Shown in pieces: positions 6,040-53,259 of a stretch of 64,000 nt of DNA (positions are counted from its first letter, which is position 1; each line of letters opens with the position of its first letter). Position numbers and translations under genes: made by a program. The notes below the pieces were generated by a model. It was not told where the DNA came from. It saw only the letters and a program-made list of their open reading frames with translations, and made no database searches. Origin of the DNA: an uncultured Candidatus Saccharibacteria bacterium (GTDB lineage: Bacteria; Patescibacteriota; Saccharimonadia; Saccharimonadales; Saccharimonadaceae). The DNA lies in the NCBI GenBank assembly GCA_947428935.1, contig CANENS010000001.1:29965-93964 (forward strand), read 5' to 3'.

Positions 6040-6234
6040 TCCGCAGCGGGTGGAATAATATTAATAAGGCTTCTATGAACTCTGCAGGCGCCAATAGTTA
6101 TTTATGGTCGAGTACTGGCACAGATTTAATTGGTGCATACTTTATTCGTTCTGATCAACCAAGGGTTACACTAGCAGATTCGAACTTTCGTCATCTCGCC
6201 TTCTCCCTCCGCTGCCTAGCTAGACTGTAATAAT
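6040..6234 (+). repeat. Orphan DGR-VR-like cassette 1 (intact, type A end)
   Basis: CGCAGCGGG...TGGTCG...CTCCGCTGCCTAGCTAGACTGTAATAAT; encodes RSGWNNIN...WSS...AYF...FSLRCLARL*. Confidence 0.85.
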
Positions 6235-6347
6235 ATATGGTAGGGTATGTGTCAAGGTTACGTTCCTTATTCTTTGGCGAGTGGGTGATTTTTTGGTTTT
6301 AGCTTTATTTTGGGGGTTCCTTTTATAATTATGCTGTTTATGTTTTT

Positions 6348-6500
6348 TCTATACTTGAGCGGCGGAGAGGGTGGTGGTAAAAGCACATACTACTACGAGA
6401 TAGGTCGAGATTAGAAAGGTCAAGAATTAGATAATAAGCGTAACGGGTGTTGTTTGCGGGTTGAGCGGACCAACTATAAAGTCAAACATAAAATGTTGAA
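6348..6500 (-). repeat. Orphan VR-like cassette 2 (decayed, type B end), convergent with cassette 1
   Basis: Minus strand reads YSWSAQPANNTRYAYYLILDLSNLDLSRSSMCFYHHPLRRSSI; 3' end matches cassette at 28820 at 21 of 24 nt; 5' part has a stop/indels. Confidence 0.7.
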
Positions 6501-7118
6501 ACTATAATGTCTGTGGAAAACTTTGGCGTTGGTGGAAAAGTGGTGGAAAACTTTTGCTCCTGTTGAACAGGGAAGAAGGATTCTACTTGTGGAAAACTCT
6601 GCCAAGAAAGCTTAAAAATATGAAAGAAAATGTCAAAAAACTCTTGTAGTTTTTGGGGAAATTGTTTATACTTAAGTCAGTGGACGAACACCCACACAAA
6701 CAGATAAAATAACTACAAAAATTATCCTAAAATAAAAGAAAATACAAAAATTTAGTGAAATATAAGTAGGTTTTAGCTGCGAGGATTCACCCACTTGGTA
6801 TCGTAAGATTGTAGATTAACAAGGTTTGAGACTGGACAACTAGGAGTTTCGGCGCGCGTTTGGGTTACGCGAAATCTAAGCCAATATGCACCTCGAAAAA
6901 AACACCTCCCAATTAACTCTATAGATTTGCACTTGTGCGAATCTCAACCACTCATTTACACTATAAGTCTCTCAACGGTCGCGTATTGTGATTAGCTTCG
7001 GCTGGTCGGGTCGCGATGGATCTAAAAAGTGTATGATGTTAAATAAACAGCAAAGAAAACAAAACCGCGGAAGTTTCTAGTTGCACGGTCTCAAACAATG
7101 AGTGTATAATATACACAT

Positions 7119-8021
7119 ATGGAAGAACTTCATCAGCCAGTGTTGTTGTCGGAAGTACTCGAAGTTTTGCAGCCGAAGCCGGGCGAGTCGTATTTGGATT
7201 TGACGGCGGGGTATGCGGGGCATGCGAGTGAAGTTTTGGATGTGACACGGAATTATAAGGATGCAGTTTTGGTCGATCGGGATCAAAATGCGGTCGAAGT
7301 ACTTGAGGAGCGGTTTGTGAGTAAGCCGATTCGGATAGTGAAGGCGGATTTTTATGATGCGGTGTTGCAGGAAATTGAGTGTGGAAATACTTTCGACATG
7401 ATATTAATGGATTTTGGAGTTTCTTCTCCGCAGCTAGACAGAGCGGAACGGGGTTTTTCCTTCGCGAAAGATGGTCCGTTGGATATGAGAATGGATCGGA
7501 CGCAAGAGTTGGATGCTGGAGTAATTATCAATAAATGGGGCGAACAGCGTATCGTTAGCATCTTGGAGAAATATGGCGAAGAAAAGTCAGGTTTTGCGAA
7601 AATGATTGCGCGGGAGATTGTGCACGGACGGCCTTGGCAGTCGACGAAGCAGTTGGGGGAGGCTTTGGCGAAGTACGGTGGAGGCGGACGAGTGCACCCG
7701 GCGACGCGGACTTTCCAGGCGATTCGGATCGCGGTGAATAATGAGTTGGAGCTGATTGCTTGGACTTTGCCGCTGGTCTTGAAGGTTTTACGGCCAGGAG
7801 GGCGCGTAGCGGCGATTACTTTTCATAGTCTAGAAGATCGGTTGGTGAAAGATTGGCTGAAAGCCGAGACCACGAAGGGGGAAGAGTCGGAACTCGTGCT
7901 ACTGACGAAAAAACCGATTACTGCGGGAGATCAGGAGTTGTTTATCAACCCGAGAGCGAGAAGCGCGAAACTACGGGCGGCGCGTAAAAGATCGGACGAT
8001 AGTCTGTCGTTCGTGCGGTAG
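7119..8021 (+). CDS. rsmH: 16S rRNA m4C1402 methyltransferase RsmH (MraW)
   Basis: HQPVLL, DLTAGYAGH, DFGVSSPQLD, ITFHSLEDR, NPRARSAKLR. Confidence 0.97.
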   Translation: MEELHQPVLLSEVLEVLQPKPGESYLDLTAGYAGHASEVLDVTRNYKDAVLVDRDQNAVEVLEERFVSKPIRIVKADFYDAVLQEIECGNTFDMILMDFGVSSPQLDRAERGFSFAKDGPLDMRMDRTQELDAGVIINKWGEQRIVSILEKYGEEKSGFAKMIAREIVHGRPWQSTKQLGEALAKYGGGGRVHPATRTFQAIRIAVNNELELIAWTLPLVLKVLRPGGRVAAITFHSLEDRLVKDWLKAETTKGEESELVLLTKKPITAGDQELFINPRARSAKLRAARKRSDDSLSFVR

Positions 8022-8247
8022 AGTGTGGAGACTTAGCCAAGCACCAAACTAAACGTCGAGCTTTTCGTGGGGTTAGTGGACGTTCATAGGCGATGGCAGC
8101 AGGTCGGAGCGCAGTGGAGGTTTTTGAGCTTTAGCAAAAAGGTTTTACGCGCGTTAGGACCGGAGTCAGGAGCTTTTTGAGCGCATAATCACTAGCCGCA
8201 GGGCCGATAAAAATAAAAAATAAAATAAATCAAAAAAGGAGGCAATT

Positions 8248-8319
8248 ATGCCACGACAAATCATTGTAACTAGCAACCGTTCACGCGCACAAAAAGTGAA
8301 GGTTCATTTTGCAAAATAA
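8248..8319 (+). CDS. Candidate 23-aa small protein MPRQIIVTSNRSRAQKVKVHFAK
   Basis: AAGGAGG RBS 5 nt before the ATG; lies in the rsmH-ftsL spacer. Confidence 0.45.
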   Translation: MPRQIIVTSNRSRAQKVKVHFAK

Positions 8320-9322: not shown

Positions 9323-9433
9323 GTTCGCAGCGGGTATGTCAATTCTCATAATGGACGCCTGGTCGGCACTGGCCTTAACGGTTATGTATGGTCATCACGT
9401 AATAGCGTTAATGCTCACTGTATCTATCGCCTT
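9323..9433 (+). repeat. Orphan VR-like cassette 3 (5' half only)
   Basis: GTTCGCAGCGGGTATGTC start; VRSGYVNSHNGRLVGTGLNGYVWSSRN...IYRL; similarity is lost after ~9433. Confidence 0.8.
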
Positions 9434-12749: not shown

Positions 12750-13002
12750 TGAGAGGGGGCTTTGTAGCGGTTTTTTTGGCTATTTTTGGAAAGACAAGCT
12801 TTTTGGCGAAAAAGTTTAAGAAAAGCCTTGTAACTCTGAGGGTGGTGAATAAAGATGCGTTTGCGCGATCTTTTGAGCGATGCAGGAGGGACTATTTTGT
12901 TTCCGTAAATTATGCCAAAAATGGGAATTACACATATTTTAAGGCAAAGAGTATTGACTTTTTTGATAACGTGTGCTATAATGGAAGGATAGGGTCCTGA
13001 TA

Positions 13003-14217
13003 ATGCGGAAACATAAGAGCGACCGGATTATTGGAGCGTTGACGGTGATTTTGCTGGGGATGGGGCTGATCGTGATTTATGCGATTGGTCCGATGCGGGC
13101 GAACGTTATGAATGCGACTTATGGAACCGATTATAGCGATAATTATTTCTTCTTCCGGCAGTTGTTTAGTGTGGTTTTGTCGTTAGCGGTGATTGTGCTG
13201 GCTTTTCGGGTACCGTACCGGATTGTGCGGAAGTTCGGTAAGCTGTTTCTAGTATTAGGGTTGTTGCTTTGTGCGCTTTTGGCAGTATTATCTTGGATGA
13301 ATAGCCCCTTGGTGAGTTGCCAGTTGGGCGCTTGCCGCTGGTTTGATTTGGGTGGGATGTTGAGTTTGCAACCGGCGGAGATTTTGAAGTTGGGGCTAGT
13401 GCTGTATTTGGCGGGGTTTTTGGCAGAAAAGCGCAAGAACGGCATGTTGGATAGTATAGTGGATTTTTGGTTGCCGTTCGGGATTGCTTGTGGTCTGTCT
13501 CTGGTGTTTGTGATTGTGATTCAGAAGGATTTAGGAACGGGAACAACTTTGATTGCAATTATTATGGCGATGCTATTTATGAGTGGGGTGAGTTTGAAAA
13601 AATATTTGGTGGTGTGTGTTTTGATTTTGATAGCGGGGGCGATAGCGATTTTGGGGTCGCCTTATCGCCGCGAGCGATTGTTAACTTTTAGTTCGGATGA
13701 ATCGAGCGATTCTTATCATATTGAGAACGCGATGATTGCGATTGGTACCGGCGGATTTTTAGGGGTAGGGATTGGTAATAGCGTGCAGGCGACCGGTTAT
13801 TTGCCGGAGTCGATTAACGATTCCGTGTTTGCGGTTATGGGCGAGACCTTCGGTTTTGTCGGGCTAGTGGCGATCATTGCGAGCTTTACGTTGCTGCTGA
13901 TGCGGTTGTTGCGTACGGCGAATTATTTACATGACGATGAGGAGTCGCTGGTGGTGATTGGGGTTTTTGCCTGGGCGGCGGCGCATGTGATCGTGAATAT
14001 TGCCGCGATGACTAGTCTGATCCCGTTGACTGGGATTACGTTGCCGTTGCTTAGTTATGGTGGAACTAGTATGCTATTTATGGCGGCGGCTTTGGGCTTA
14101 GCTTTACAATTATCTTGTTATACGAGCCGGGAGCCGCGTAAGGAACAACCGCGCGTTTCACGCAAGGCAGTAGAGAATGCTTCGCCGCGGCGTCGTCAAT
14201 TACGGAGGAATGTGTGA
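13003..14217 (+). CDS. ftsW: SEDS family protein FtsW
   Basis: QPAEILK, QKDLGT, LPESINDSVFA, PLTGITLPLLSYGGTS. Confidence 0.93.
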   Translation: MRKHKSDRIIGALTVILLGMGLIVIYAIGPMRANVMNATYGTDYSDNYFFFRQLFSVVLSLAVIVLAFRVPYRIVRKFGKLFLVLGLLLCALLAVLSWMNSPLVSCQLGACRWFDLGGMLSLQPAEILKLGLVLYLAGFLAEKRKNGMLDSIVDFWLPFGIACGLSLVFVIVIQKDLGTGTTLIAIIMAMLFMSGVSLKKYLVVCVLILIAGAIAILGSPYRRERLLTFSSDESSDSYHIENAMIAIGTGGFLGVGIGNSVQATGYLPESINDSVFAVMGETFGFVGLVAIIASFTLLLMRLLRTANYLHDDEESLVVIGVFAWAAAHVIVNIAAMTSLIPLTGITLPLLSYGGTSMLFMAAALGLALQLSCYTSREPRKEQPRVSRKAVENASPRRRQLRRNV

Positions 14218-16060: not shown

Positions 16061-16333
16061 AATTCGGTTTCGGCTCATCACGTTGAAATTTTAATTTCGC
16101 TATTGACTTTTTTGGTAATATGTGCTATAATAAGGGTAGAGGGTGGTTTTTGACGGGCTGATTTTTCTAAACGCTAGTTCTCTGATGAAAACTAGGGAAT
16201 TACGTTCAAAGAAAATGAATAAAAGACTTAGTGATCAGATCAACACAACGAATCATAATGGCTGACTATCGTGCTTGTGTTTGCATATAAATGATGTATG
16301 TAATAATGTGTGTGCTTTTTGGCATTGCTTATA

Positions 16334-16510
16334 ATTATCATTGTTGCCTACGCTCGAGCAGCGGAGGGGAGGAGTTCCAGCGATCGTAGCTGTTGGACGG
16401 GTGGACGCCAGAAGCAGTAAAGACAAGATAGTATGCATAACGAAGACTAGAAGAATTAGCCCGGGACGACCATTCGTAACCGTTGCTACTGATGTAGACG
16501 TACCCGCGAC
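16334..16510 (-). repeat. Orphan VR-like cassette 4 (type B end; 24-nt internal deletion, 2-nt frameshift)
   Basis: Minus strand: GYVYISSNGYEWSSRANSSSLRYAYYLVFTASGVHPSNSYDRWNS, then shifted PLRCSSV. Confidence 0.85.
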
Positions 16511-16621
16511 AGAGCGTTTTTAAGTTCGGTTTTTGTTCGGTTATTTATAATCAAGAGGATGATATGGGGAGCGTTGATCCGTGTGGTGATGGGGTAAAAA
16601 CGCCGATAGCGTTTGTAGGTA

Positions 16622-27018: not shown

Positions 27019-27192
27019 TTTACAGATTTTCTTTTTTATTGATTGTTCTTGGCACCTTGACAACTTTTAACATAATATTTCCCCCTTTTGTTAAAATTTG
27101 AAGACGATTTTAATTTTCGATGCGGCAAAAAAACGCCACATTGTCTTTATATTGGCATAGATTGTGGTTCTTGCCAAGATTATTTTTGCTTT

Positions 27193-27394
27193 ATTATTAC
27201 AGTCTAGCTAGGCAGCGGAGGGGGAAGGCGTCCCAGCGATTATCGTTGTTAGACGGGTAGATGCCAGACGCATCGAAGGCGAGGTAGTATGCAGAACGAA
27301 CACCAGAAGAATTAGCTAGGGACGACCATCCGTAGCCGCTGATGCCAGAGACCCTCAAACGACCGTAATTAATATTGACGTACCCGCTGCGAAC
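27193..27394 (-). repeat. Orphan DGR-VR-like cassette 6 (intact, type A end)
   Basis: VRSGYVNINYGRLRVSGISGYGWSSLANSSGVRSAYYLAFDASGIYPSNNDNRWDAFPLRCLARL*; no start codon or RBS. Confidence 0.9.
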
Positions 27395-28727: not shown

Positions 28728-28819
28728 AAACTACAATAATGACCCTCATCGTGATTTCTTTCGTTTAAGACCACTATGACAAAACTTATGTCTAAAGATT
28801 AACTTAATCAAGCAATATG

Positions 28820-29017
28820 TACTGTCTATACTCGAGCAGCGGAGGGGGAAGCCGTACCAACGAGCATCGCTGTGCGATGGGTATATCCCGGCACCATAAG
28901 TACGGAAGTAATAGGCGATCGCCCTGTTAGTGCCATGAGACGTTGACGACCATATATCTGTGTTGATGCCAGGGCGCCCCAAACGACCGCCACCGACACT
29001 AACGTACCCGCTGCGAA
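28820..29017 (-). repeat. Orphan DGR-VR-like cassette 7 (intact, type B end)
   Basis: IRSGYVSVGGGRLGRPGINTDIWSSTSHGTNRAIAYYFRTYGAGIYPSHSDARWYGFPLRCSSID; begins just after a terminator. Confidence 0.9.
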
Positions 29018-38110: not shown

Positions 38111-38217
38111 TTATAGCATGCTTTGCTTAAAAAGTCAATAGATTGAACACTAAATTTGTTCAATTTTGGTGGTTTTTGTGGGTTTTGTTGTAATTTTAAC
38201 AACAAAACTCTTGACAA
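38110..38217. promoter_or_regulatory. Divergent promoter module copy B
   Basis: Same boxes as 26230, 42115 and 52839; a cassette starts 14 bp after TTGACA. Confidence 0.75.
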
Positions 38218-38230
38218 GCGGCAGTATGAT

Positions 38231-38428
38231 TTTCACAACGGGTTCGTTAATATTCGTAGCGGTCGTTTGGGGTTCTCTAGCAGTAATGGTTACGGTTGGT
38301 TGTCATGGTCTTATACTGATATTTATTCTGCGTCATACCTTGGTCTCTATGCATCTGGCGTCTACTCGTCTGGTGGCAGTAGTCGCTGGGCCGGTTGTCC
38401 TCTCCGCTGCCTAGCTAGATAGTGATGA
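38231..38428 (+). repeat. Orphan DGR-VR-like cassette 8 (intact, type A end)
   Basis: HNGFVNIRSGRLGFSSSNGYGWLSWSYTDIYSASYLGLYASGVYSSGGSSRWAGCPLRCLAR*. Confidence 0.85.
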
Positions 38429-38504
38429 AATATATACGCGATGTATGTTCATTCAGTCTGTGTATTTTATAAAACTAAAGCAAAATCGTGCTATAATGGG
38501 TGAT

Positions 38505-42043: not shown

Positions 42044-42066
42044 GCAGGGCCCCATAGGGGCCCTGT
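42044..42066. terminator. GC-rich hairpin CAGGGCCCC-atag-GGGGCCCTG
   Basis: Perfect stem just downstream of ORF 40968-42014. Confidence 0.65.
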
Positions 42067-42114
42067 TGTGTAGTCTGCCTGGTTTTGAAAGGTTTATCTT
42101 TGCCCTATCCCCCC

Positions 42115-42223
42115 ATTATAGCACACATCGTCAAAAAAGTCAAGATTTTGTATAAATAATTTGTTCAGTTTTGAGGACTTTTACGGGTCTTGTTGTATTT
42201 TTTAACAACAAAACCCTTGACAA
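42115..42223. promoter_or_regulatory. Divergent promoter module copy C
   Basis: Same boxes as the other copies; a cassette starts 28 bp after TTGACA. Confidence 0.75.
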
Positions 42224-42250
42224 GTATAACCATAAGGCTGCATGAAACGC

Positions 42251-42452
42251 GTTCGCAGCGGGTTTGTTGATGTTAGTAATGGCTACTTCAGGCGGTCTGG
42301 CCTTGATGGTAGCCAATGGTCATCTCGCACTGACCCTTCTAGTGATCGCTATGCGTATTATTTCTACTATGGCATATCAGATCTTAATCCATCAAATACC
42401 TATGTTCGCTACTACACCTTCCCCCTCCGCTGCCTAGCTAGACAGTAATAAT
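42251..42452 (+). repeat. Orphan DGR-VR-like cassette 9 (intact, type A end)
   Basis: VRSGFVDVSNGYFRRSGLDGSQWSSRTDPSSDRYAYYFYYGISDLNPSNTYVRYYTFPLRCLARQ*; in-frame ATG at 42242 but no RBS. Confidence 0.9.
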
Positions 42453-42464
42453 GTATAAGAAAAT

Positions 42465-44762: not shown

Positions 44763-44930
44763 TCTGATAATTATATCATAGATAAAACTAGTTGTCATTA
44801 AAATAAGAGAAAATGTCATGATTTCATATATGTTGTAATTTTGTTTTAGTCTGAGTTATAGAAAAGTTTTGTATTTTGAAGAAGTGTGTTATAATGAAAA
44901 TGTTCTGAGAACGGATGCCTGTTGCAATAT

Positions 44931-45007
44931 GGTCTCGTCGTCTAGTGGTCTAGGACGCCTGGTTCTCATCCAGGAAATCGCGGGTTCGACTCCCGCCGGG
45001 ACTACCA
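44931..45007 (+). tRNA. tRNA-Glu(CTC)
   Basis: GTCTAGTGGTCTAGGAC D-arm, CCTGG-TTCTCAT-CCAGG anticodon arm, GGTTCGACTCCC, CCA; terminator hairpin follows. Confidence 0.95.
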
Positions 45008-45242
45008 TAGAAAATAGTTCACGCTTTGGTGTGAACTATTTTCTATGGTATGTGCATTTTTAGCGGTCATTCGTGCAGATGAACGCTGATTTGCGCAATA
45101 ATATCGCTTGCGTTTAACGAAATTGCCATGTTATAATGGGAGTAAGGAGTGGGCGGATATTAAATAATTTTTCGTAGACTATTTGATTTGACTGATTTTG
45201 TGGGCTAGGTCGGGAGATTTAGTTGGCGAGATTGGAGGTAAA

Positions 45243-45335
45243 ATGGTTTTTAATATCGTGGCTCTTGGTGCGATCTTGAGTGTAGCTTTGCGCTACGGCT
45301 ATACCAAAGAGATGCTTGATGGTGACAAGAAATAG
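45243..45335 (+). CDS. Candidate 30-aa single-TM small protein
   Basis: GGAGG RBS; MVFNIVALGAILSVALRYGYTKEMLDGDKK. Confidence 0.45.
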   Translation: MVFNIVALGAILSVALRYGYTKEMLDGDKK

Positions 45336-45389
45336 AATCTTTTCTCTGCGCTTATTGTTTTTTTATATATAACCCTATATAATGAAAGT

Positions 45390-46283
45390 ATGAGTGAAAG
45401 CAAAGATGTTCGTGTCTTGGAGAAACGGCAGGAGGCTCAAAAAATTGACTCGAAAAAGCCGCCGATTGATGAAATTCCGCTTCGACATAGGGCTGAGCGT
45501 CGTTGTTGGATTTTGGCTGTAATCTTGATTGTGATGGTAGTGGTTGCGGTGCTGGCCTCTTTGATTGTTCTGTTTCTGAATCATACACATAATGGGGACG
45601 GGGCAAACAGCATTGACGGCACATCCGTGCAGCAGAATGGCATGCGTGATGCGCTCCGGTTTAAGAATGAATACGAATCTTTGAATAATACGGTGCGGCA
45701 GAGCGACGGTGCGACTTATGGCGAGGTCGTCATTGATGAAGATAATCCGGTTGTTTATGTTACGCCCACGGAAGTTTTGGATCTTCTGGACGCTGAAACG
45801 GCGGTGATTTATGTCGGTGCGGAGTGGTGCCCTTGGTGCCGCAATGCTGTGCCGGTGTTGCTGGATGTAGCGAAGCAGTATGGCGTAGATAAACTATATT
45901 ATTTAAATTTGGATGGCGAAAAATCGGAGTTCGAGGTTAAAAATGGTGAGCTGATTCAAAAGCAAAAAGGATCCGAGGCATATTATAAATTGTTGGATAA
46001 GCTGAAAGATAAATTGCGTGATTATGCAATTAGTGATCGTGACGGCAATGATTATTCTACAGGTGAAAAGCGGATTTACCAGCCGCACGTTTTTGGTATC
46101 AAGGATGGTAAAGTGGTAGCAGACAAAAGCGGTACAGTGGAGCTGACGGAAGGTCAAAGTAAATATGATACACTTTCGTCTGCACAGAAGAATGAATTGC
46201 GTAAAGTTTATCTTGAGCTATTTGAAAAAGTTTATGGTGAGCGTATGGAAACTTGTTCCACTGCTGAGCAGGTTTGTGATTAG
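45390..46283 (+). CDS. Membrane-anchored thioredoxin-fold protein
   Basis: One TM, then YVGAEWCPWCR (CxxC). Confidence 0.75.
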   Translation: MSESKDVRVLEKRQEAQKIDSKKPPIDEIPLRHRAERRCWILAVILIVMVVVAVLASLIVLFLNHTHNGDGANSIDGTSVQQNGMRDALRFKNEYESLNNTVRQSDGATYGEVVIDEDNPVVYVTPTEVLDLLDAETAVIYVGAEWCPWCRNAVPVLLDVAKQYGVDKLYYLNLDGEKSEFEVKNGELIQKQKGSEAYYKLLDKLKDKLRDYAISDRDGNDYSTGEKRIYQPHVFGIKDGKVVADKSGTVELTEGQSKYDTLSSAQKNELRKVYLELFEKVYGERMETCSTAEQVCD

Positions 46284-46690
46284 ACCTGGGAAAATTAATT
46301 GTAATGACTGCTGATGCCTATCCCTGTATAATTAGTATACTTTCGCATTAAAGAAGCATGCTCACGTTTTAGAAAAGTATACTTTTGTAATAGAAAAATA
46401 TACTAAAATATATTTTTGTAATTTATCTCTGGGAAAATAGGGTTTTTACTCTCAAAAATAAGTTTACCCAAAATATAATCAAGTTTATTCCCGGTATAGA
46501 AAAGTATGCTTAGACTATAATGGAGTTTGCTCGATGTCTAAAAAATTTAGTTTTGCATTAGTAGGATGTACATCTGTAATATAAAGAAAGTCTATACGAA
46601 ATATGTTGACAAGGTTTTTTGGCGCAGTGAGTGCCCATTAAAATATGGCTTAAATGGTGAAAATACGTTAGGGGTTTTCGCTAGACTATT

Positions 46691-47974
46691 TCAATAGGAG
46701 ACTCCGCCGGTGCTGGGAATGGCCGCGATCCAAAGTTGACCCGGAGCGAAGCTGATTTTGCTTCCTGCTGTATCGCGAAATACGATTTGATCATCTTGAC
46801 TGTTCTTTTGCCAGGTACCTTCGATTATGGTGCCGTTTTGAAAAATGTAAGCGTTACCGCTACCGATAGTCTCGATCTGCTCATGATAACCGTCGCGCAT
46901 GGTATATTGTTCGACCAGCATAGCGACTACGGCGGTTGGAGTGATTTGGATGGCTTCGCCGCATTCAGTTTTGGTGGTGGGCTGTTCTAGCTCCGGCGCG
47001 CAGTCGTAAGATAAATGCGGGGCGCCGGTCGCAAATGAACGGGTATAATTATTTGATTCGGGGTTGTATTGATAGGCGGTGTTGTAATCCGGCTGTACAC
47101 CGAAATTAATCGAAAAAGCCTCGACGGTTGGAGTATCGAGGACGCATTCTTCGCCAGCAGCGATTTTTGCGGTGCAGCTTTGGCGCTCGGAGACGATATT
47201 GGCGGTGACATCTGGAGTGAGACGCGGAAAGGCTTTTGGCTCGGAGGCTTTGAAGCCGAGAGTGTTGTTGTAATTGGTGAGTTCTGCGGGAGAGGTGAAG
47301 AGATTATTCCAACTGCGACTATAATCGTTTTCGCGCCAAGCATAAGCTCCGCCGTCAACATCGAGATTGCGAAAATCACCGTTGCCGACTTCGGCGAGCG
47401 CTTCGTCAGAACCGCCAGCGTGGACAATTGTGCAATCGAACGGTGCATCCCAGGAGGTGTAATAAGGCCGCAGGGAGCGAATTGGGCCGATCGCGCTAAC
47501 GTCGGGGTTTTGAAAAACGGCGGCAAAACGTGTAATACCGCGCTCGGCGATCGCCTCAAAAACCACAGCGGCTTGACTGAGACCTGCCTGCGGGCGAGCG
47601 CCGTCGTCACTATTCGGAATTTGGATGCAAAAAGTGGGGCTAGAGTTGAGCGCGGCGTCGGTGATTTCGAGGCCAGTGAGGGTACTATAGATCGGCTCGA
47701 CGAAATCCGCTTTTGTCGCCTCTTGTTCGGTTTTCTCTTGATTTGCCAGGACGAAAATGATGGCGGCCGCAACGATCAAAGCTAAAATAATAGTAATCAC
47801 AACAATAATAGCTATTTTGCGCTTTTTAGGCATAGAGGTTTTTTCCTTCTTGCTGCTATTTTTGATCTTTTTATGTTGGCTATTCTTTCGCAGTTCTTCG
47901 TCGGTCAGTTCAAGGTTAATCGGTTTCTTGCTCGTACTTTTGGTTTTAGTATTCTTTTTTCCACCCTGACTCAT
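46691..47974 (-). CDS. DUF3048-like membrane-anchored protein
   Basis: ARPQAGLSQA..VFE..AERGITRF, GPIRSLRPY, HAGGS. Confidence 0.75.
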   Translation of the reverse strand: MSQGGKKNTKTKSTSKKPINLELTDEELRKNSQHKKIKNSSKKEKTSMPKKRKIAIIVVITIILALIVAAAIIFVLANQEKTEQEATKADFVEPIYSTLTGLEITDAALNSSPTFCIQIPNSDDGARPQAGLSQAAVVFEAIAERGITRFAAVFQNPDVSAIGPIRSLRPYYTSWDAPFDCTIVHAGGSDEALAEVGNGDFRNLDVDGGAYAWRENDYSRSWNNLFTSPAELTNYNNTLGFKASEPKAFPRLTPDVTANIVSERQSCTAKIAAGEECVLDTPTVEAFSINFGVQPDYNTAYQYNPESNNYTRSFATGAPHLSYDCAPELEQPTTKTECGEAIQITPTAVVAMLVEQYTMRDGYHEQIETIGSGNAYIFQNGTIIEGTWQKNSQDDQIVFRDTAGSKISFAPGQLWIAAIPSTGGVSY

Positions 47975-48148
47975 ATTGTACTCCACTTTAGTTTTTACTA
48001 TTATAACATACGCAATTTTGCGAAGCAATTTTACGGTTAAGCGTATTAAGAGATTTTGGGGTGCTTTTGCTGGATATTATGCGACCTTGATTGCGGTGCG
48101 TAGTATCCGAAAAGGGAGTAGATTTTATTGTGTCATACGACGCTTAGT

Positions 48149-48350
48149 TTTCGCAGCGGCAATGTTAATGTCGATAGAGGCTTATTAAGGAACATTGCTT
48201 ATTTTGGCTATGAATGGTCGTCACAAACTACTGTACTCGACGATGGTCCTGTTTATAGCCTTGGTTTTAATAAGTCAGATGTCTTTCCGTCCGATAGCCA
48301 TGATCGTTGGATTGCTTCCCCCCTCCGCTGCCTAGCTAGACAGTAATAAT
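48149..48350 (+). repeat. Orphan DGR-VR-like cassette 10 (intact, type A end)
   Basis: FRSGNVNVDRGLLRNIAYFGYEWSSQTTVLDDGPVYSLGFNKSDVFPSDSHDRWIASPLRCLARQ*. Confidence 0.9.
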
Positions 48351-48455
48351 ACAAGGTAAAAGCTTAAGTTAATTTTATACTTCGAAATTTATCCCGTGCG
48401 TTAATGATAGATGCAAGTAATATATGTATCAAGTTGTAATCGTATGTGTCACGTT

Positions 48456-49895
48456 TCAGTCGTTCTCGATTGCGCTGATAGTGGAATGTAAGCGAGCGAG
48501 CGAGAGATTTTTGCCTAGAACATTGAGCGTAAGATGGAGCGCGGGGCTGAACGGCGCATAGGATAATGCAATGCGGATTAAGGAAAAAAGTTCCGCGGGC
48601 TTTTTATTGGTCTCGATCAAGAGGTTGTTCAAAGTTGTTTGTAGTGCATCAGCATTCCATTCGCTTTGTTCCAGTCTTTGTGCTGAGACTTGTAAAAGGT
48701 CGCTCAGTTCTTCTTCCGAGAATTTCTTGAGGAACTTATTTTTAATGATCATATCAAGATCGATTGATGGGTTTTCGAAGAAATATACAGTCATTTGGCG
48801 TAGGTCGCCGAGAGTTTTGAGGCGGTCGTAAATAATTGCGAGGACATGTTTTTTGTATGCGTCGTCGTAAGGCGCGGCGCTTTTGGGCCAAAAATTTAAG
48901 GTCTGAGAGTAGAGCGCGTCGATGCCTTGTTCGTTGACGATTTTGCGAATCCATTGTCCATTTTGCCAGAGCAGCTTTGTTTCGTCGAAGCGCGCACCGG
49001 AAGTTTGAATACGATCAACGGAGAATTTCTCGATCAGCTGATCCTTAGTATAAATTTCGTCTTCAGTGCCATCGTTCCAGCCCAGGCAGGCTAGGTAGTT
49101 CAACATAGCTTCGGCTAAGATCCCCTCCTCGCGATATTCGGTGACGGATTTTGCGCTATCGCGTTTGCTGAGTTTTTTGGTGCCAGTGGGGCCGAGAATG
49201 TGTGGCAGAGAAATAAAATGCGGAATTTCTAGATTTAAGGCTTCGTAGAGCGCTAAATAATTCGGCATACTGGAAAGGTATTCGACTCCGCGCACCACGT
49301 CGGTTACACCCATCAGTGCATCATCGACGATGTGTGCGAAATTGTAAGTCGGAAAACCGTCAGCTTTGATCAGGATAATATCGTCTTGTACTTCCGGACC
49401 AGCGCTAAGATCGCCCATGACTTCGTCGTGCCAAGAACGTACTTTTGGATCAGCCTTGAAACGTAGCGGCATGCCTTCTTGCCACTCCGGTGGGTGCTCT
49501 GGCCGAAAATCACGATATAGGAAGGGTTTTTTTTCATTATGACATATTTTACGATATTTATCAATAGTATCGGCAGGGGTGGGGTCGGCGTAAGCTCGAT
49601 TGCTGGCGATGAGCTTTTTGGCCCATTCTTGGTAAAATGCTTTGCGTTCGCTCTGAAAATAGGGCTGATTTGGCCCGCCAATGATCGGACCTTCGTCCCA
49701 ATCTAGCCCAAGCCATTTTAAAGTTTCTTCGATTAGCTCAGTCGCGCCTTCCACGAAACGGGTGCGGTCGGTATCTTCGATACGGAGAATGAACGTACCG
49801 TTATTTTGTTGTGCCAAAAGATAAGGATAAATGGCGCTGCGGACATTTCCGAGGTGAATATGGCCGGTAGGGCTAGGGGCGAATCGTGTTTTCAT
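48456..49895 (-). CDS. gltX: Glutamate--tRNA ligase
   Basis: RFAPSPTGHIHLGN, RIEDTD, KLSKRD. Confidence 0.96.
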   Translation of the reverse strand: MKTRFAPSPTGHIHLGNVRSAIYPYLLAQQNNGTFILRIEDTDRTRFVEGATELIEETLKWLGLDWDEGPIIGGPNQPYFQSERKAFYQEWAKKLIASNRAYADPTPADTIDKYRKICHNEKKPFLYRDFRPEHPPEWQEGMPLRFKADPKVRSWHDEVMGDLSAGPEVQDDIILIKADGFPTYNFAHIVDDALMGVTDVVRGVEYLSSMPNYLALYEALNLEIPHFISLPHILGPTGTKKLSKRDSAKSVTEYREEGILAEAMLNYLACLGWNDGTEDEIYTKDQLIEKFSVDRIQTSGARFDETKLLWQNGQWIRKIVNEQGIDALYSQTLNFWPKSAAPYDDAYKKHVLAIIYDRLKTLGDLRQMTVYFFENPSIDLDMIIKNKFLKKFSEEELSDLLQVSAQRLEQSEWNADALQTTLNNLLIETNKKPAELFSLIRIALSYAPFSPALHLTLNVLGKNLSLARLHSTISAIEND

Positions 49896-50061
49896 AGTAG
49901 TATTATACCATAGAAATTTAAGATGCCCTTAATTGATAAGGCATTATATCCAAGAGTCCCTGATTAGGATGGTTAATCCATAAAGTATCGGTAAAAGTTG
50001 CGCCTTCACAGTGGTATCATAGCACAAGAACGAGTTCTATCTATAAGATCTCGATTTTTTA

Positions 50062-50436
50062 TCAACTTCCTTCATTTATTAAGCAGCTAAGCCACATGAT
50101 GATTCCGATTATGGTTGGTGTGAGGCAAAGGATGATTCCTGCGATGAGGACGATATTCGTTTTTCGGTTAAAATCGTTTTTGCGAAGCCGAATATGCTGC
50201 ACTATTCCGATTAAGGCAAAAAGGATTCCGACTGGTATATGTATAGTGATAAACGAAACTGCGAAAGAAAATGCCATACCGAGCCCGCCAATTGGGCTGA
50301 AAGCGAACCCCAGCACAGTTAATAAGGTGTTAGCCACGCCAACAACGAATGTGGCTTTAACATGATTTGGTGTTTCTGTAGAATTTCCGTTCTGCTTTGG
50401 CAATAATTTTTCTTGATTTCTGTTTTCAGTTTTCAT
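50062..50436 (-). CDS. Small membrane protein (3 TM)
   Basis: 124-aa ORF with hydrophobic helices, directly downstream of the 750-aa gene. Confidence 0.65.
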   Translation of the reverse strand: MKTENRNQEKLLPKQNGNSTETPNHVKATFVVGVANTLLTVLGFAFSPIGGLGMAFSFAVSFITIHIPVGILFALIGIVQHIRLRKNDFNRKTNIVLIAGIILCLTPTIIGIIMWLSCLINEGS

Positions 50437-50447
50437 AATAATTTTAT

Positions 50448-52700
50448 CTATAATGATACTACGATATTGCGAAGCTGCTTCTTAGTGAGGTTGTCGTTCT
50501 TGGAGCTGATTTTGTAGAGGATGCCGGCGTTGACCCAAGCGGCATCAGAGCCTGAGATGTAGATTGTGATCCCCTGTTCGTGGGTGGTGGAATATTTGTC
50601 GCCCCAAGTCGGTTTGACGAAATTTCGCTCAAGCGCCACGCTATCCCATGAGGATTTTTCTTCGATCAGGATGAAGCTGGCGTCGTCGGGCCCTTTAAAA
50701 TTCATGCTAATTTTTCCATCTTCAGAAGCAACATCGCCCAGCGAATAACCGCGTGGAACATAGGATGGATAGGAAGCTTCGATGCCGGTTTGCATAGCAG
50801 CGACGCGTACGGAAATATCGGGCATATTGGAACTTACCAAGTAGAAAAAGGCACCTACGCAAGCTGTGGCACAACCAAAAGCGATTAAAAAACGTTTGCC
50901 ACCGCCTTTTTTGTGATTACGTTCTACTTCTCTTTTCTTTTGACTGCGGACTGAGTCGGCTGGCGAATCATTCATGGTGGCGACGGAACGCATAGTTTGC
51001 CGCAGCGCGCGTTCACGATCGGCAGCGGTCTTCTGACCCGTCGATCGCTTCTTAGTAGCCGTCGGACGCTGCATACTTTTTGATTTCGTCGGTATTGCTT
51101 GGTTGCGAGCAAGTATAGCTTGACGATTGTTAGCTGATAATGCCAGATTAGAATTATTATTGATGCGGCTGGCTGCCATGGCCTTGGCAGAGGAACGTGT
51201 AACTTTTGCGGCTGCGCGCGTGGCGCCGCGCGAGAGAGTAGTTCTATTGGGTTTAGTAGCTGGCTTTGGATTATTTTTCACACTGACTGAAGTTGTTTTT
51301 GTATTAGCGGCAGCTGCTTCTTTGCGCTCGATTGCTTCTTTGACGCTGGTCGATTTCATGGCGACACTAACGAATTTATCGATTGTATCGCTTAATTCTT
51401 GAATTTCTGGCGCGGTAGATTCAGTCCGAATTTTTTCTGAAAAAGCCTTGAGTGAAGTGATTTGTTCGGCGATATCGTTCGGATCGTTGGCTAGATGAAT
51501 GGCAGCGATCGCATCGGCAGCGGTGCGCGCGATTTCTTCTACCGAGGATGGAGAATGTTGGGCGTGACCGATCGCGAGATTAAGATTGTTCGGCTCACTT
51601 TCGTTTGGTTCAGACATGGCATATCCTTGATAATTATTACCATATTCAGCTACTGACGCGCCGAGGCTAGCAGCAGCGTAATCGGCGGCAATATTCATTG
51701 CGAGTTCGGATTGATCCATTACATGCTGACTATTTTCTGTGGCTTCTGAAACGGCGACCGCTGCGGCTGGAGCCATGTCCATAACGTCGCTAGCGGCTAC
51801 TCCGTTCATAGGTGTATAGTATTCTGATGTTTCGGATGTTGGCAGATTGCAAGTACTTTCGTTTGGAGTAGTAGGATCTTGCATTGAATTATTAGTAAAG
51901 GTGCTGTCACCAATTTGCTCGCTGTAGTAGCTATCTTTATTGTAAGCGTTTTCTGTCGGTAGGGCGTCGCCTGGGGTTTGCATTGCGTAACTGGAGTAAT
52001 TGGAGTAATTGGGGTTTGTTGCTTCAGGAGTCGGAACCTGGTGTGTCATCCTGGCTGCACTCATAGTATAGGCCATGGCTTCGGCTTCGTGGTCGATGCT
52101 GGGGGTGTCTAGTTCTGCTGGTGTGCGAGTTTCGGATCGGGGCGCCGAGGCTTGCGTTTCTGGGCTTGTAATGGATGGAGGGGCTAAGGATGGAGCAGTA
52201 AGCGCAATCGGACTTGCTGCCTCGTTTTGGTCTTGAAAATTATCGCCCCTGGTTTGCGGTAGGTCAAAATTATTTTGTGCTTCTTCGGATTTCTCGTTTG
52301 AGGTGAAATCGATCGTAATACTCTCTTTTTGGCTATCCTCTCCTCCCATTTCGATAACGTTAGAAAAAACTGTGATTGGTTTCGAGGTTGTTTTGTTCTT
52401 TTTGATTTTTGGCGATTTTGCTTTTGCTTCTTGTAGAACACGGTTTTTAGCGCGTTGGGCGGCTTCCAACTCAACACGGCGGACGCCTAAATTGACTAAA
52501 CGCGAAGGAGCGCTCTGAACAGCTTTGATGGCTGCAGCTTTTTCGGCTTCTCGCGCTGCCTCTTCGATGGCCAGATTGCCTGGACGATGGACATAACGCC
52601 GATCCAGCGTCATTGAAGCCTGGGTTAAACGATGAGTAGCTGAACTAGAGCGACCAACTTCATAGTTTTGTTTACTCATTGATTTTTTTGATTCCTCCAT
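50448..52700 (-). CDS. Large low-complexity protein with TM and DUF4367-like C-terminal domain
   Basis: TLDRRYVHRP N-terminus; S/A/T/E-rich middle; PSYVPRGYSL..AAWVNAGILY C-terminus. Confidence 0.75.
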   Translation of the reverse strand: MEESKKSMSKQNYEVGRSSSATHRLTQASMTLDRRYVHRPGNLAIEEAAREAEKAAAIKAVQSAPSRLVNLGVRRVELEAAQRAKNRVLQEAKAKSPKIKKNKTTSKPITVFSNVIEMGGEDSQKESITIDFTSNEKSEEAQNNFDLPQTRGDNFQDQNEAASPIALTAPSLAPPSITSPETQASAPRSETRTPAELDTPSIDHEAEAMAYTMSAARMTHQVPTPEATNPNYSNYSSYAMQTPGDALPTENAYNKDSYYSEQIGDSTFTNNSMQDPTTPNESTCNLPTSETSEYYTPMNGVAASDVMDMAPAAAVAVSEATENSQHVMDQSELAMNIAADYAAASLGASVAEYGNNYQGYAMSEPNESEPNNLNLAIGHAQHSPSSVEEIARTAADAIAAIHLANDPNDIAEQITSLKAFSEKIRTESTAPEIQELSDTIDKFVSVAMKSTSVKEAIERKEAAAANTKTTSVSVKNNPKPATKPNRTTLSRGATRAAAKVTRSSAKAMAASRINNNSNLALSANNRQAILARNQAIPTKSKSMQRPTATKKRSTGQKTAADRERALRQTMRSVATMNDSPADSVRSQKKREVERNHKKGGGKRFLIAFGCATACVGAFFYLVSSNMPDISVRVAAMQTGIEASYPSYVPRGYSLGDVASEDGKISMNFKGPDDASFILIEEKSSWDSVALERNFVKPTWGDKYSTTHEQGITIYISGSDAAWVNAGILYKISSKNDNLTKKQLRNIVVSL

Positions 52701-52838
52701 CGTGTTTTTGCTTGCTACTATTATAACTGCAAGCGCGTTCGAAAAGCAAGGGGCTTTTCGATTGATTTGCCGCGCAGGCTGTGGAAAACTTTAGTTTGTT
52801 TTTTTGAAAAGAAAGTTTTATTTCGACCCTATCTTCTC

Positions 52839-52946
52839 ATTATAGCACACTTTTCATTTTTTGTCCAGACTTCGTACACTAAATTTGTTCAGTTTTGGTG
52901 GTTTTTCGAGAAAATGTTGTATTTTTAACAACAAGAGTATTGACAA
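52839..52946. promoter_or_regulatory. Divergent promoter module copy D
   Basis: Same boxes as the other copies; a cassette fragment starts 23 bp after TTGACA. Confidence 0.7.
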
Positions 52947-52968
52947 GCGTAAATTTGGTGCTTTATGT

Positions 52969-53016
52969 TTTCGCAGTGAAGATCTTCATATCGCGGATGA
53001 CCAACTGAGAACCATT
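52969..53016 (+). repeat. VR-like cassette 11 (5' fragment), convergent with cassette 12
   Basis: TTT CGC AGT GAA GAT CTT CAT ATC..CTG AGA ACC ATT (FRSEDLHIADDQLRTI) aligns with cassette 10 FRSGNVNVDRGLLRNI. Confidence 0.5.
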
Positions 53017-53057
53017 ATGAGTTCATGCCTATACAAACAAATATGCTTTTGCTATAC

Positions 53058-53259
53058 ATTATTACTGTCTAGCTAGACAGCGGAGGGGGAAGCTGAAGTA
53101 GCGATTGCTGTTGTCGGACGGGTTGACGCCAGACGCATTGAAGGCGAGGTTGTATGCGCTATTAATATTAGATGAAATAGTTCTCGATGACCATCCGTAA
53201 CCGCCGATGCCAGAGGCCCACAAACGACCGCTATTGATATGGACGTACCCGCTGCGAAC
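53058..53259 (-). repeat. Orphan DGR-VR-like cassette 12 (intact, type A end, most AAY-rich)
   Basis: VRSGYVHINSGRLWASGIGGYGWSSRTISSNINSAYNLAFNASGVNPSDNSNRYFSFPLRCLARQ*; ~80% nt identity to cassette 6 by hand count. Confidence 0.92.

Follow-up and report, generated by a model that had tools for sequence, protein, structure and literature searches.

The ~200-bp units that recur in the intergenic DNA of the window, by which we mean the whole 64-kb stretch analysed here, form a genuine repeat family, and we propose, at roughly even odds (about 0.5), that they act as acceptors (VR-type cassettes) with no gene attached, in a DGR-like system that is dispersed, uses several templates, and diversifies a small FISUMP/C-type-lectin-like protein of Saccharibacteria. 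According to this proposal, the rarer, AAY-rich template-type copies would be transcribed, and the GC-rich end of each would pair with a downstream GCCGCGGCGGGG to give a terminator-like hairpin. An unlinked reverse transcriptase (RT), none of which was seen here, would copy these templates into adenine-mutagenised cDNA, and the cDNA would overwrite any cassette enclosed by the common head and tail, be it an orphan or part of a gene. Such rewriting would keep the orphan units open, variable by whole codons only, and composed of NNY codons, even if no selection acted on a product of these units. Mutagenesis of a template that consists of AAY and A-free codons cannot produce stop codons, and the presence of several templates in a genome would explain why there are several cassette subfamilies. 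Mosaics are probably added by homologous exchange among the units, and the lineage to which the window belongs may have a system that is currently idle.

Cassette family of the window

The window is part of a gut Saccharibacteria genome. The search of its whole 64 kb with nhmmer and a DNA profile built from the eight best copies resulted in the identification of eight full-length copies (E 2e-39 to 2e-61) and two partial ones (Table 1), and the same family was recovered in an independent repeat search of the window (repeats D1, D5-D7, and I1-I6). The sequence-only reading had counted about twelve copies, two of which do not belong to the family: site 16622 does not match the cassette DNA profile, and site 52969 is not a cassette but merely a ~10-nt head stub (TTTCGCAGTGA) behind an unrelated upstream element. 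Its remaining observations on the units, namely abrupt ends with unrelated flanks, seven uninterrupted frames, and no coding domain upstream, are borne out by the results given below.

Table 1. Cassettes and D2 elements of the window (positions are those of the whole stretch)
Feature	Copy	Positions	Strand	Evidence	Remarks
Full V-type (acceptor-type) cassette	6040	6040..6239	+	nhmmer E 9e-42; protein HMM E 1.8e-26	intact 59-codon frame LRSGWNN...FSLRCLARL, then two stop codons; most diverged of the copies
Degenerate partial cassette, 3' half only	6345	6345..6445	-	nhmmer E 2e-4; protein HMM E 3.8e-5	covers protein profile positions 21-60; convergent with copy 6040
Partial cassette, head and 5' half	9323	9324..9421	+	nhmmer E 1.6e-13; tblastn	3' half gone; a further ~10 codons upstream are similar to the constant half (DGxWYN); P0040 is the orthologue in another sample
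Cassette with 24-nt internal deletion	16337	16332..16511	-	nhmmer E 2e-39; alignments; flanks	frame lost near 3' end; tail is the TCGAGCGTAG variant
Full V-type cassette, intact 61-codon frame	27193	27190..27393	-	nhmmer E 2e-61	nearest relative is copy 53058 (78% identity)
Full cassette, intact frame, 'read-through' tail (PLRCSSID...)	28820	28816..29017	-	nhmmer E 6e-45	this tail type elsewhere joins units head-to-tail in arrays (array in L088)
Full V-type cassette, intact 60-codon frame	38232	38232..38434	+	nhmmer E 9e-48	head slightly degenerate, CACAACGGG; preceded by D2 element
Full V-type cassette, intact frame	42251	42251..42457	+	nhmmer E 6e-50	preceded by D2 element
Full V-type cassette, intact frame	48149	48150..48354	+	nhmmer E 9e-50	identical in 4 other assemblies
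Full V-type cassette, intact frame	53058	53053..53259	-	nhmmer E 1e-58	8 AAY codons, the most among window copies; tail contains a perfect 16-bp palindrome, CTGTCTAGCTAGACAG
D2 element		38111..38220	+	repeat search and alignment	leftward promoter-like box, hairpin, CTTGACAAG
Further D2 copies		26230-26339, 42116-42225, 52840-52949		repeat search and alignment	

Each unit corresponds to the C-terminal ~61 codons, VRSG…FPLRC, of a lectin-like domain of the FISUMP/Fib_succ_major type, followed by a conserved 3' tail. The similarity between copies starts sharply, 2-3 nt 5' of CGCAGCGGG, and ends as sharply at TGC+CTAGCTAGAC(A/T)GTAATAAT; in copies 16337 and 28820 the tail is replaced by the variant TCGAG(Y)(R)TAG. 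Every unit has a conserved head (GTTCGCAGCGGG) and a conserved GC-rich end followed by a palindromic tail (CCCCCTCCGCTGCC + TAGCTAGACAGTAATAAT), and the flanks, which are mutually unrelated, are intergenic Saccharibacteria DNA between housekeeping genes. The frame is uninterrupted in seven of the ten copies and has 59-61 codons (177, 180 or 183 nt), which means that all indels are in frame. The window copies differ from each other by 22-54%, non-A sites included, with dS of ~0.3 to >1 and dN/dS of 0.13-0.95. Stop codons are located immediately upstream of most of them, and tblastn found no upstream half of the domain in the window, except for the additional codons at copy 9323. More than 100 cassettes are present across Saccharibacteria contigs; as our HMM screen detects stop-free segments only, it overestimates the number of intact frames outside the window. 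The constant half is absent from 94 of 100 cassettes, a stop codon occurs no more than 30 codons upstream in 80 of 100, and 94 of 100 begin at one and the same codon.

The suggestion that the units are decayed target genes was rejected, since the N-terminal half is missing from the window, the 5' ends are uniform, as exemplified by the codon at which 94 of 100 cassettes begin, and the intergenic spaces are too short, with heads only 65-265 bp away from the neighbouring genes according to their coordinates. It is also highly improbable that the units are independent small genes, each encoding a peptide of ~65 residues. Although their frames are open, many of them are annotated by gene callers as proteins of 67-130 aa, copy 42251 has an ATG three codons upstream as well as an upstream AAGG, and DGR targets of down to 44 aa were listed by Wu et al. 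(PMC5758913), most units have no start codon at a conserved position, most have no promoter, and the called starts vary by copy. Additionally, the unit covers only the last third of the FISUMP domain, a signal peptide is missing, and some units are fused head-to-tail in a single frame.

The intergenic location of the units, their dispersal on both strands, and their uniform ends would suit inert relics or selfish repeats, i.e., past DGR targets or a MITE-like element with a gene fragment, spread by duplication and recombination and having no function and no rewriting. The partial or broken copies 6345, 9323, and 16337 and the head-to-tail arrays observed elsewhere are consistent with such an origin. 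However, the cassette flanks contain no target-site duplications, no transposase was found, and their only terminal inverted match is one of 7 bp (GCAGCGG/CCGCTGC), which is not kept in L009. The maintenance of the frame in seven of ten copies, with in-frame indels only and at the dS values given above, also speaks against relics, which we consider unlikely. A reading of the GCAGCGG/CCGCTGC ends as a structured RNA or TIR was rejected, as the match results from the conservation of the RSG and LRC codons and does not occur in L009; Rfam and tRNA scans identified two tRNAs only, with no RNA family located at the cassettes. Three cassette heads or head stubs are preceded, at a distance of 20-30 nt, by a D2 element (Table 1), the link of which with the cassettes is uncertain.

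The cassette HMM matches full-length Saccharibacteria proteins (E 8e-21 to 4e-8), the C-termini of which represent Pfam Fib_succ_major (38.0 bits in L010 and 63.9 bits in L027, at the cut-off of 33.9). The region corresponding to the cassette covers approximately positions 130-186 of the Fib_succ_major profile. The membership of the cassettes in the FISUMP/Fib_succ_major family is thus indicated indirectly, via two proteins that pass the threshold; the 65-aa cassette peptides gave no Pfam or TIGR02145 FISUMP match, and their full-domain relative P0012 scored below the cut-offs (24.7 bits vs. 41.65 for TIGR02145 and 21.6 bits vs. 33.9 for PF09603). The AlphaFold2 model of P0012 (pLDDT 54) was too poor for a fold search, the PDB sequence search gave no match, and the lectin-like fold is assigned to the cassette domain by sequence only. 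FISUMP/Fib_succ_major is a known class of DGR variable regions, designated CLec2 by Wu et al. (PMC5758913).

Substitution pattern and template-like copies

Several features of the substitution and codon pattern of the cassettes are DGR-like and give indirect support to the DGR idea. In the closest subfamily (27193, 53058, L089a, and L089b), the 66 variable coding columns are split over codon positions 1/2/3 as 30/20/16, as compared to 157/97/374 in the GluRS control (p = 4e-8), and A is present in 11 of 117 invariant columns vs. 27% in the control (p = 7e-6). Mismatches involving A make up 63-73% of the total, vs. ~44% expected. The cassette codons are largely NNY: 75% of four-fold codons end with C or T, vs. 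50% in the window genes (p = 3e-13), and K, E, Q, and M together account for 2.8% of 3367 cassette residues. Against this idea, changes involving A at codon positions 1 and 2 are frequent in an ordinary gene as well (70% in the GluRS control vs. 84% in the cassettes, p = 0.056).

Rare AAY-rich copies, assigned by us as T-type, could be distinguished in sister lineages from the common V-type copies, the mean number of AAY codons being 8.0 in the former (n = 11) and 3.4 in the latter (n = 84; p = 3e-4). The lengths of all 95 cassettes classed as T- or V-type are divisible by 3. Among 124 substitutions in five T-to-V pairs, 72 are from A of the T copy (A>G 31, A>T 26, A>C 15) and nine are to A, while the remainder are mostly third-position C/T changes. 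Because A changes to three bases, an adenosine-deaminase-type mechanism was rejected. In the best pair, 12 of 15 substitutions are from A and none is in the reverse direction (p = 8e-7); in single pairs, between the members of which samples differ, 43-80% of mismatches are at A of the T copy and 0-22% in reverse. The asymmetry is suggestive, but the share from A speaks against our proposal, as Roux et al. describe a filter that removes candidates with less than 75% of mismatches at A.

The two types differ also in their ends. The 3' end of V-type copies consists of CCCCCTCCGCTGCC followed by the palindrome CTAGCTAG or AGTACT, while T-type copies have the GC-rich part in common with them and then diverge to GCCGCGGCGGGGTGCCGATCTTT. 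The tails of T-type copies are terminator-like: they fold into a hairpin (-14 to -21 kcal/mol), behind which there is a U run. This layout of ends appears to resemble that of IMH/IMH* of DGRs. Simple ectopic insertion of mutagenised cDNA, one of the models put forward in the sequence-only reading, was set aside, as it leaves unexplained the tail that acceptor copies carry and template-like copies lack. For the window's own lineage (CLARQ tail type), no T-type copy was found.

Neither RT nor Avd was detected in the 64-kb window (Pfam search with 48 ORFs and motif scan). The related loci, 2.3 Mb in total, likewise gave no match in phmmer searches with the BPP-1 proteins Brt and Avd at E<=10 and in motif scans, and neither protein is encoded by the 20 ORFs adjoining T-type copies, where the neighbours are housekeeping genes. 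A template repeat was found neither in the window nor in the 2.3 Mb of related loci. No two window copies make a TR/VR pair: the share of mismatches at A of one of the partners never exceeds 42%. The scan of genome contigs for the tail motif gave nothing, and none of the three matches in viral contigs is associated with a cassette. Certain candidates could be dismissed: of the two ORFs beside copy 27193 considered as Avd/RT, that at 27831-28727 is DprA and the 106-aa one at 27423-27743 has no Pfam match, and the L009 gene with its two downstream orphans, considered as a TR/VR set, is 50-57% identical with no A bias. The DGR origin postulated from the sequence alone is indirectly supported as far as the CLec2-class homology, the substitution and codon fingerprint, and the A-to-N asymmetry in sister lineages are concerned; the searches for RT, Avd, a template, and a TR/VR pair, the differences of window copies at non-A sites, and the constancy of two cassettes between strains count against it.

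Possible rewriting and recombination, and the long form

Cassettes 48149 and 53058, the two of the window for which a comparison was possible, are unchanged in assemblies that are 99.6-99.96% identical elsewhere, as would be expected both of relics and of donors of recombination. In L001 and L002, two of the four other assemblies with an identical copy 48149, the synteny breaks inside the tail of this copy, directly after CCTAGCTAG, and a defence-gene island is present there, which is also consistent with relics, as is the failure to find an RT in the window and the 2.3 Mb of related loci. The pattern is different in L004 and L137, which belong to another lineage than the window's and are 97.8% identical over 9.1 kb. 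One orthologous orphan cassette of theirs contains 27 differences (24 mismatches in a 200-nt bin vs. ~3 per 200 nt in the background), while the cassette adjoining it is 100% identical. The changed orphan has diverged about eight times faster than its surroundings, which argues against relics and in favour of the rewriting that we propose.

Certain window copies carry probable traces of exchange. Copy 27193 is a three-part mosaic with a middle block like that of copy 16337 (max-chi2 p ~0.002), and the 3' 58 nt of copies 53058 and 42251 are 91% identical (max-chi2 p ~0.002). Among orphans from different species, even the synonymous sites of the head and tail are conserved, which is not the case in full-length FISUMP genes.

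The absence of a target gene, claimed in the earlier description of the units, holds for the window, but another contig of the same MAG (GCA_949463425.1) contains a promoter-bearing gene that ends in the unit. This long form, L215, is organized as a TTGACT-17-TAGGAT promoter, ATG, constant half, head, cassette, and tail, and has the head and tail in common with the 10 promoter-less window copies; long forms may themselves be multi-copy, which is a caveat on its being a single expression locus. In four samples, the constant half of the long form is 97-99% identical and its tail 91-100%, while the cassette interior is only 32-68% identical, with sharp borders, indels, and many non-A differences. 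This variability of the cassette in a promoter-bearing gene is one of the grounds for our proposal; the in-frame TAA that L215 contains in this MAG and its lack of a signal peptide speak against it. The match between its cassette and the window copies is confined to the 46-nt tail, and no blocks identical to the silent copies of the window were found outside the tail.

The above data may suggest that the units are a silent archive for homologous recombination, with no retroelement today, in which RecA-type gene conversion into the long form proceeds via the common head and tail and the composition is inherited from an ancestral DGR target. This model, also raised in the sequence-only reading, is a possible but somewhat unlikely one. 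The occurrence in the same MAG of a locus of expression type that has the head and tail of the orphans, the replacement of its cassette interior between samples, the conservation of synonymous sites in the head and tail, and the mosaic copies speak in its favour, as does the failure to find an RT in the window, in the 2.3 Mb of related loci, and in the ORFs beside T-type copies. Yet no expressed cassette was found to match an orphan of the same genome (that of L215 matches window copies in the tail only), the head provides only ~15 nt of homology, and the long form of this MAG is interrupted by a stop codon. Moreover, the split into T-type and V-type copies, the AAY enrichment and A-to-N asymmetry, and the persistence of NNY at four-fold sites despite saturated dS are left unexplained by an archive.

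Rewriting by a DGR-like system, as we propose, and the archive could also be parts of a two-tier network in a reduced epibiont genome. A trans-acting RT and a dozen scattered templates would rewrite dozens of gene-less acceptors and a few expressed genes by means of the universal head and tail, and the orphans would be a library recombined into the expressed lectin-like gene, so that a DGR would be coupled to a pilS/MgPar-like archive. We consider such a network, taken as a whole, unlikely.

Significance and comparison with known systems

DGRs are understood as compact systems, in which RT, one template, and one or few target genes occur together. In the system described here, the variable module is mostly without a gene, and the template-like copies lie scattered, none of them linked to an RT. 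We found no description of gene-less dispersed cassettes with a DGR mutational fingerprint in the literature. If an RT is found, DGRs will have to include systems with numerous templates and acceptors and with homing to non-coding DNA, a process that would require the cis ends only; such systems would escape surveys that begin with an RT and are limited to its vicinity. If there is no RT, the cassettes would represent a Mycoplasma/Neisseria-type archive for a lectin-like protein, the first one in the Candidate Phyla Radiation according to our literature searches. In either case, they would indicate that obligate epibionts, of whose recognition of hosts little is understood, have a binding protein that changes rapidly. 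The cassettes also account for a class of short 'hypothetical proteins' and for contig breaks in Saccharibacteria MAGs.

The units resemble MITE/REP-type repeats in being ~200 bp long, intergenic, present on both strands, and numerous, and in having defined ends and occasional tandem arrays. They differ from them in being protein-derived, with a maintained frame, and in lacking target-site duplications, a real terminal inverted repeat, and any transposase that could be found. Orphan cdiA-CT and rhs-CT modules are promoter-less C-terminal parts that start at VENN or PxxxxDPxGL, which allows them to be swapped into the full gene. Like them, the cassettes begin exactly at a short conserved coding motif, VRSG in this case. 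While those orphans are toxin modules with an immunity gene and occur in a cluster 3' of the main gene, the cassettes are dispersed, have 61 codons, and are lectin-like.

In the MgPar of Mycoplasma genitalium, RepMP of M. pneumoniae, pilS of Neisseria, and msp2 functional pseudogenes of Anaplasma, variation is generated by RecA-type gene conversion. Common features of these systems and the cassettes are a small-genome, host-dependent bacterium, dispersed promoter-less partial copies of a surface-type protein segment, conserved flanks shared with one promoter-bearing locus, open frames, and mosaic copies. In contrast to them, no transfer from a donor to an expression site is visible here when L215 is compared with the window copies. 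We know of no adenine-specific, NNY-restricted variation and no dimorphism of template and acceptor tails in any of those systems.

Compared with DGRs with CLec2 or remote targets, over 90% of the acceptors described here are without a gene, a promoter, and the N-terminal portion of the domain, each contig set has several template-like copies, located among housekeeping genes and never adjoining an RT, no RT or Avd is seen, and the differences between cassette subfamilies of the same genome include non-A sites. The location of acceptors far from any RT has its counterpart in the Treponema denticola DGR with several remote targets (PMC5758913). The similarity to DGRs with CLec2 targets (DUF1566/DUF823/Fib_succ_major; Legionella LdtA; PMC5758913) concerns the variable segment itself, which is the same C-terminal end of a FISUMP-type lectin-like domain, the A-poor scaffold codons and NNY variable codons, the GC-rich 3' end followed by a short palindrome, and the A-to-N asymmetry from template-like to acceptor copies.

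Cassette copies and neighbouring elements in the window

A repeat search recovered the cassette family on both strands of the window, and a search with a DNA profile of its best eight members found eight full copies of this ~200-bp unit (E 2e-39 to 2e-61) and two partial ones. The dispersed family of ~12 copies proposed in the sequence-only reading therefore holds as a family, but two of its sites, 16622 and 52969, are not members; at the latter, no more than a ~10-nt stub of the head follows D2, a separate repeated element. The abrupt ends described there are confirmed by comparison of the flanks, which gave sharp borders at both sides: similarity starts 2-3 nt ahead of CGCAGCGGG and stops at TGC followed by CTAGCTAGAC(A/T)GTAATAAT, or, in two copies, at a TCGAG..TAG tail variant that lacks a stop and reads through. 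Seven uninterrupted frames are likewise present, with 59-61 codons open; since their lengths are 177, 180 or 183 nt, all indels are in frame. Stops lie directly upstream of most window cassettes, and a tblastn search with the N-terminal half of relatives that have the full domain agreed with the claim that no coding domain precedes the copies, as this half is absent from the window except for ~10 codons at 9323. The sites are located between housekeeping genes (dcw cluster, topA, dprA, pth, prfA, htrA, lepB, der, gltX, eno).

The GluRS of the window strain is at most 76% identical to those of species representatives, and nearly all of its best matches belong to gut or rumen MAGs of Candidatus Saccharibacteria. 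Window positions 42700-59895 recur at 99.96% identity in two MAGs at NCBI, GCA_949463425.1 and GCA_951800845.1. The strain also occurs in the samples SRR24860779, SRR9157799 and SRR31919365 and in the ENA runs underlying ERZ12802837 and ERZ778497.

Coordinates of the cassettes, genes and repeated elements (window positions unless a related contig is named)
Feature	Position	Strand	Remark
Promoter-like box TTGACTTTTTTGATAACGTGTGCTATAATGG	310-367, 4707-4764, 12946-13005, 16101-16144, 25458-25526, 27808-27849, 33946-33989, 42103-42160, 52838-52879, 55098-55155	both	-35, 17-nt spacer, extended -10; strong conservation before many genes
D2, 110-nt repeated element	26230-26339, 38111-38220, 42116-42225, 52840-52949		leftward promoter box, TTGTTGTA..AACAACAA hairpin, CTTGACAAG
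Partial cassettes	6345-6445, 9324-9421
Tandem AATGACYAAYRGTCAGTAATTTTA	5962-6030		two units, each with TGAC-N5-GTCA palindrome
Element similar to the above	L089 11805-11873
Terminator-like hairpin	42044-42066
Cassette upstream of coupling-protein gene	16332-16511
Coupling protein and its neighbour	17061-21713
Region of dprA	27423-29017		dprA at 27831-28727
Three cassettes of another subfamily	L024 6858-9070	same strand	within 2.2 kb
In-frame TAA of long form	L215 319-321		GAA in three other samples
DDE_Tnp_1 transposase gene	L218 701-1693
Helicase and ATPase genes	L001/L002 1978-6151

The TTGACTTTTTTGATAACGTGTGCTATAATGG box is probably the house promoter of the organism. Three of the four D2 copies precede the head of a cassette, or a head stub, by 20-30 nt; the leftward promoter of the copy at 42116 faces only a terminator-like hairpin, and therefore might drive a tiny RNA. 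The tandem AATGACYAAYRGTCAGTAATTTTA element, directly upstream of the cassette at 6040, is a possible protein-binding site, and an element similar to it adjoins a cassette in an unrelated contig. In an otherwise housekeeping region, a 1186-aa VirD4/TraG-like coupling protein adjoins a protein that combines sigma-70 region 4 with a HARE-HTH domain. Two cassettes bracket dprA, the gene of a recombination mediator for incoming DNA, possibly by coincidence. A different cassette subfamily in one Saccharibacteria contig (L024) has the sequence ..SSRALRSLPLSVMMSG...GYFWSST...GFxLRCV, and its conserved 5' part is longer.

Sequence variation, turnover and the promoter-bearing gene

Window copies are 46-78% identical to each other, and no template/variable-repeat pair was found among them, with no more than 42% of mismatches falling on an A in one of the two copies. 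In the case of the closest subfamily (27193, 53058 and two copies in the related contig L089), the 66 variable columns split 30/20/16 over codon positions 1, 2 and 3, compared with 157/97/374 in GluRS, our control of similar divergence; invariant columns are A in 9% of cases vs. 27% in the control, and 63-73% of mismatches involve A vs. ~44% expected. Pyrimidine-ending four-fold codons reach 75% in cassettes vs. 50% in window genes, and K, E, Q and M are almost missing from 53 cassette peptides. The closest subfamily thus varies unlike ordinary coding DNA, although the control likewise shows many A-involving changes at positions 1 and 2 (70% vs. 84% in the cassettes, p = 0.056), which makes this measure weak on its own.

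A reading of the cassettes as decayed target genes leaves their common start unexplained: 94 of 100 begin at the same codon, 65-265 bp from unrelated genes. Fast turnover of orphans, the cassettes without a gene, is possible, as one of them carries 27 differences, 18 involving A, between two contigs that are 97.8% identical over 9.1 kb (L004 and L137); its 200-nt bin holds 24 mismatches, where the background rate would give ~3. The cassette next to it is identical in both. A second hotspot, outside cassettes, has 53 differences in 200 nt (L004 5000-5200); a relB-like gene and gyrB flank it. In the window lineage, cassettes 48149 and 53058 are unchanged across assemblies with 6-7 SNPs elsewhere.

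Several findings point to recombination. Both ends of copy 27193 resemble 53058 and its middle resembles 16337 (max-chi2 p ~0.002), and the last 58 nt of 53058 are common to 42251 at 91% identity. In the related contigs L001 and L002 (Logan SRR24860779 and SRR9157799), identity to the window is 99.6% up to the tail of 48149 and is lost past CCTAGCTAG (window 48339), where a UvrD-type helicase and an OLD/TOPRIM ATPase, which look like a Gabija-like defence pair, replace the DNA leading to gltX. In another contig (L088), at least three units are fused head-to-tail with no spacer. Frequent inversions between oppositely oriented cassettes are disfavoured, since GC skew stays positive on the + strand over nearly the whole window (1-64000; about zero near 26-28 kb), regardless of gene strand.

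A search with the constant half of a related protein (P0005) found a long form on contig CASVLI010000015.1 (L215), in the same MAG as the window strain, in the order promoter, ATG, ~68 constant codons, head, cassette and tail. Its predicted promoter, TTGACT-17-TAGGAT, is near the house consensus and of the same type as the TTGACTTTTTTGATAACGTGTGCTATAATGG box. The same long form occurs in three other samples, and identity among the four is 97-99% in the constant half, 32-68% in the cassette interior and 91-100% in the tail. A second lineage is built alike: P0024, P0032, P0033 and P0046 have one and the same constant half but different cassettes. We take the long form for a probably expressed target gene within this genome. 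Its protein lacks a signal peptide, and the in-frame TAA in L215, five codons ahead of the cassette head, could mark the gene as a pseudogene or as phase-off, or stem from an assembly error. Homology of the long forms sets in precisely at the -35 box, and the DNA before it is unrelated, so they may be multi-copy. In L215 the long form adjoins ruvB, possibly by coincidence, and in L218 the gene of an IS-type DDE transposase lies directly 3' of a long-form copy with an internally truncated cassette.

Template-like copies and the search for a reverse transcriptase

A scan of metagenome contigs for a head followed by a tail yielded 96 cassettes from 47 loci, each within a short stop-to-stop segment. 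The acceptor-type tail, a palindrome behind the GC-rich end followed by a stop, is present in 84 of 115 cassettes. Eleven of the 115 (T-type) have another tail, GCCGCGG(C/T)GGGGTGCCGATCTTT, that pairs with the GC-rich end into a hairpin followed by a U run, and they average 8.0 AAY codons vs. 3.4 in the 84 (p = 3e-4). In five pooled pairs of T-type and acceptor-like (V-type) copies, 72 of 124 substitutions lead from A of the T copy to G, T and C, and 9 of 124 lead to A; in the best pair, 12 of 15 start from A, and the reverse does not occur. The remainder are mostly third-position C/T changes, as expected when different samples are compared. Based on these cross-sample pairs, we read the T-type copies as putative template repeats. 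None with the window's own tail type was found among the cassettes examined.

The reverse transcriptase and Avd expected from the DGR idea did not appear in the sequences searched. No reverse transcriptase was found by Pfam among 48 window ORFs or among 20 ORFs beside T-type copies, whose neighbours are tRNA synthetases, SHMT and similar, nor by motif scans of the window and related loci; phmmer with Brt and Avd of the BPP-1 record found neither in six-frame segments of 2.3 Mb of related loci. Canonical linkage of reverse transcriptase and template is therefore excluded for the eleven T-type copies seen. As ~2% of each related genome was covered, the enzyme may be unlinked to its templates.

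Plain ectopic insertion of cDNA would not supply the acceptor-type tail. A silent archive used by recombination, another model of the sequence-only reading, agrees with the long form, the shared ends and the mosaic copies, but is at odds with the T/V dimorphism and the A-to-N asymmetry. We give roughly even odds to the cassettes being acceptor sites of a dispersed, multi-template DGR-like system, in which rewriting would act on them with or without an attached gene; recombination is likely a second layer over such rewriting. The system may be idle in the window strain.

Relation to known DGR target domains

The cassette peptide (consensus xRSGYVN..GRL...G..GYxWSS....AYYLxF..SGVxPS....RW..FPLRC) has by itself no Pfam match. 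A profile search of 5.8 billion proteins found 51 relatives, all of 67-132 aa, some with the upstream extension ..CPxxWKLPTSN..GSFYxLLxKYG...YNIAxxPLYF. One relative (P0012) matches TIGR02145 (FISUMP) weakly (E 3e-5; 24.7 bits, below the 41.65 cut-off), as it does Pfam Fib_succ_major and Lcl_C. The quality of the AlphaFold model of P0012 was too poor for use, and a PDB sequence search gave no match. In related genomes, the cassette HMM matches the C-termini of 340-1140-aa proteins that score as Fib_succ_major, two of them (L010 and L027) above the gathering threshold, and the cassette corresponds to about the final 55 positions of the 187-position profile. Our literature search found no paper on such cassettes in Saccharibacteria, nor on gene-less DGR acceptors. 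DUF1566/DUF823/Fib_succ_major targets form the 'CLec2' class, 14% of surveyed DGRs (Wu et al., PMC5758913), and, together with the Fib_succ_major-scoring relatives, this supports, at the level of sequence, homology of the cassettes to a known DGR variable region.
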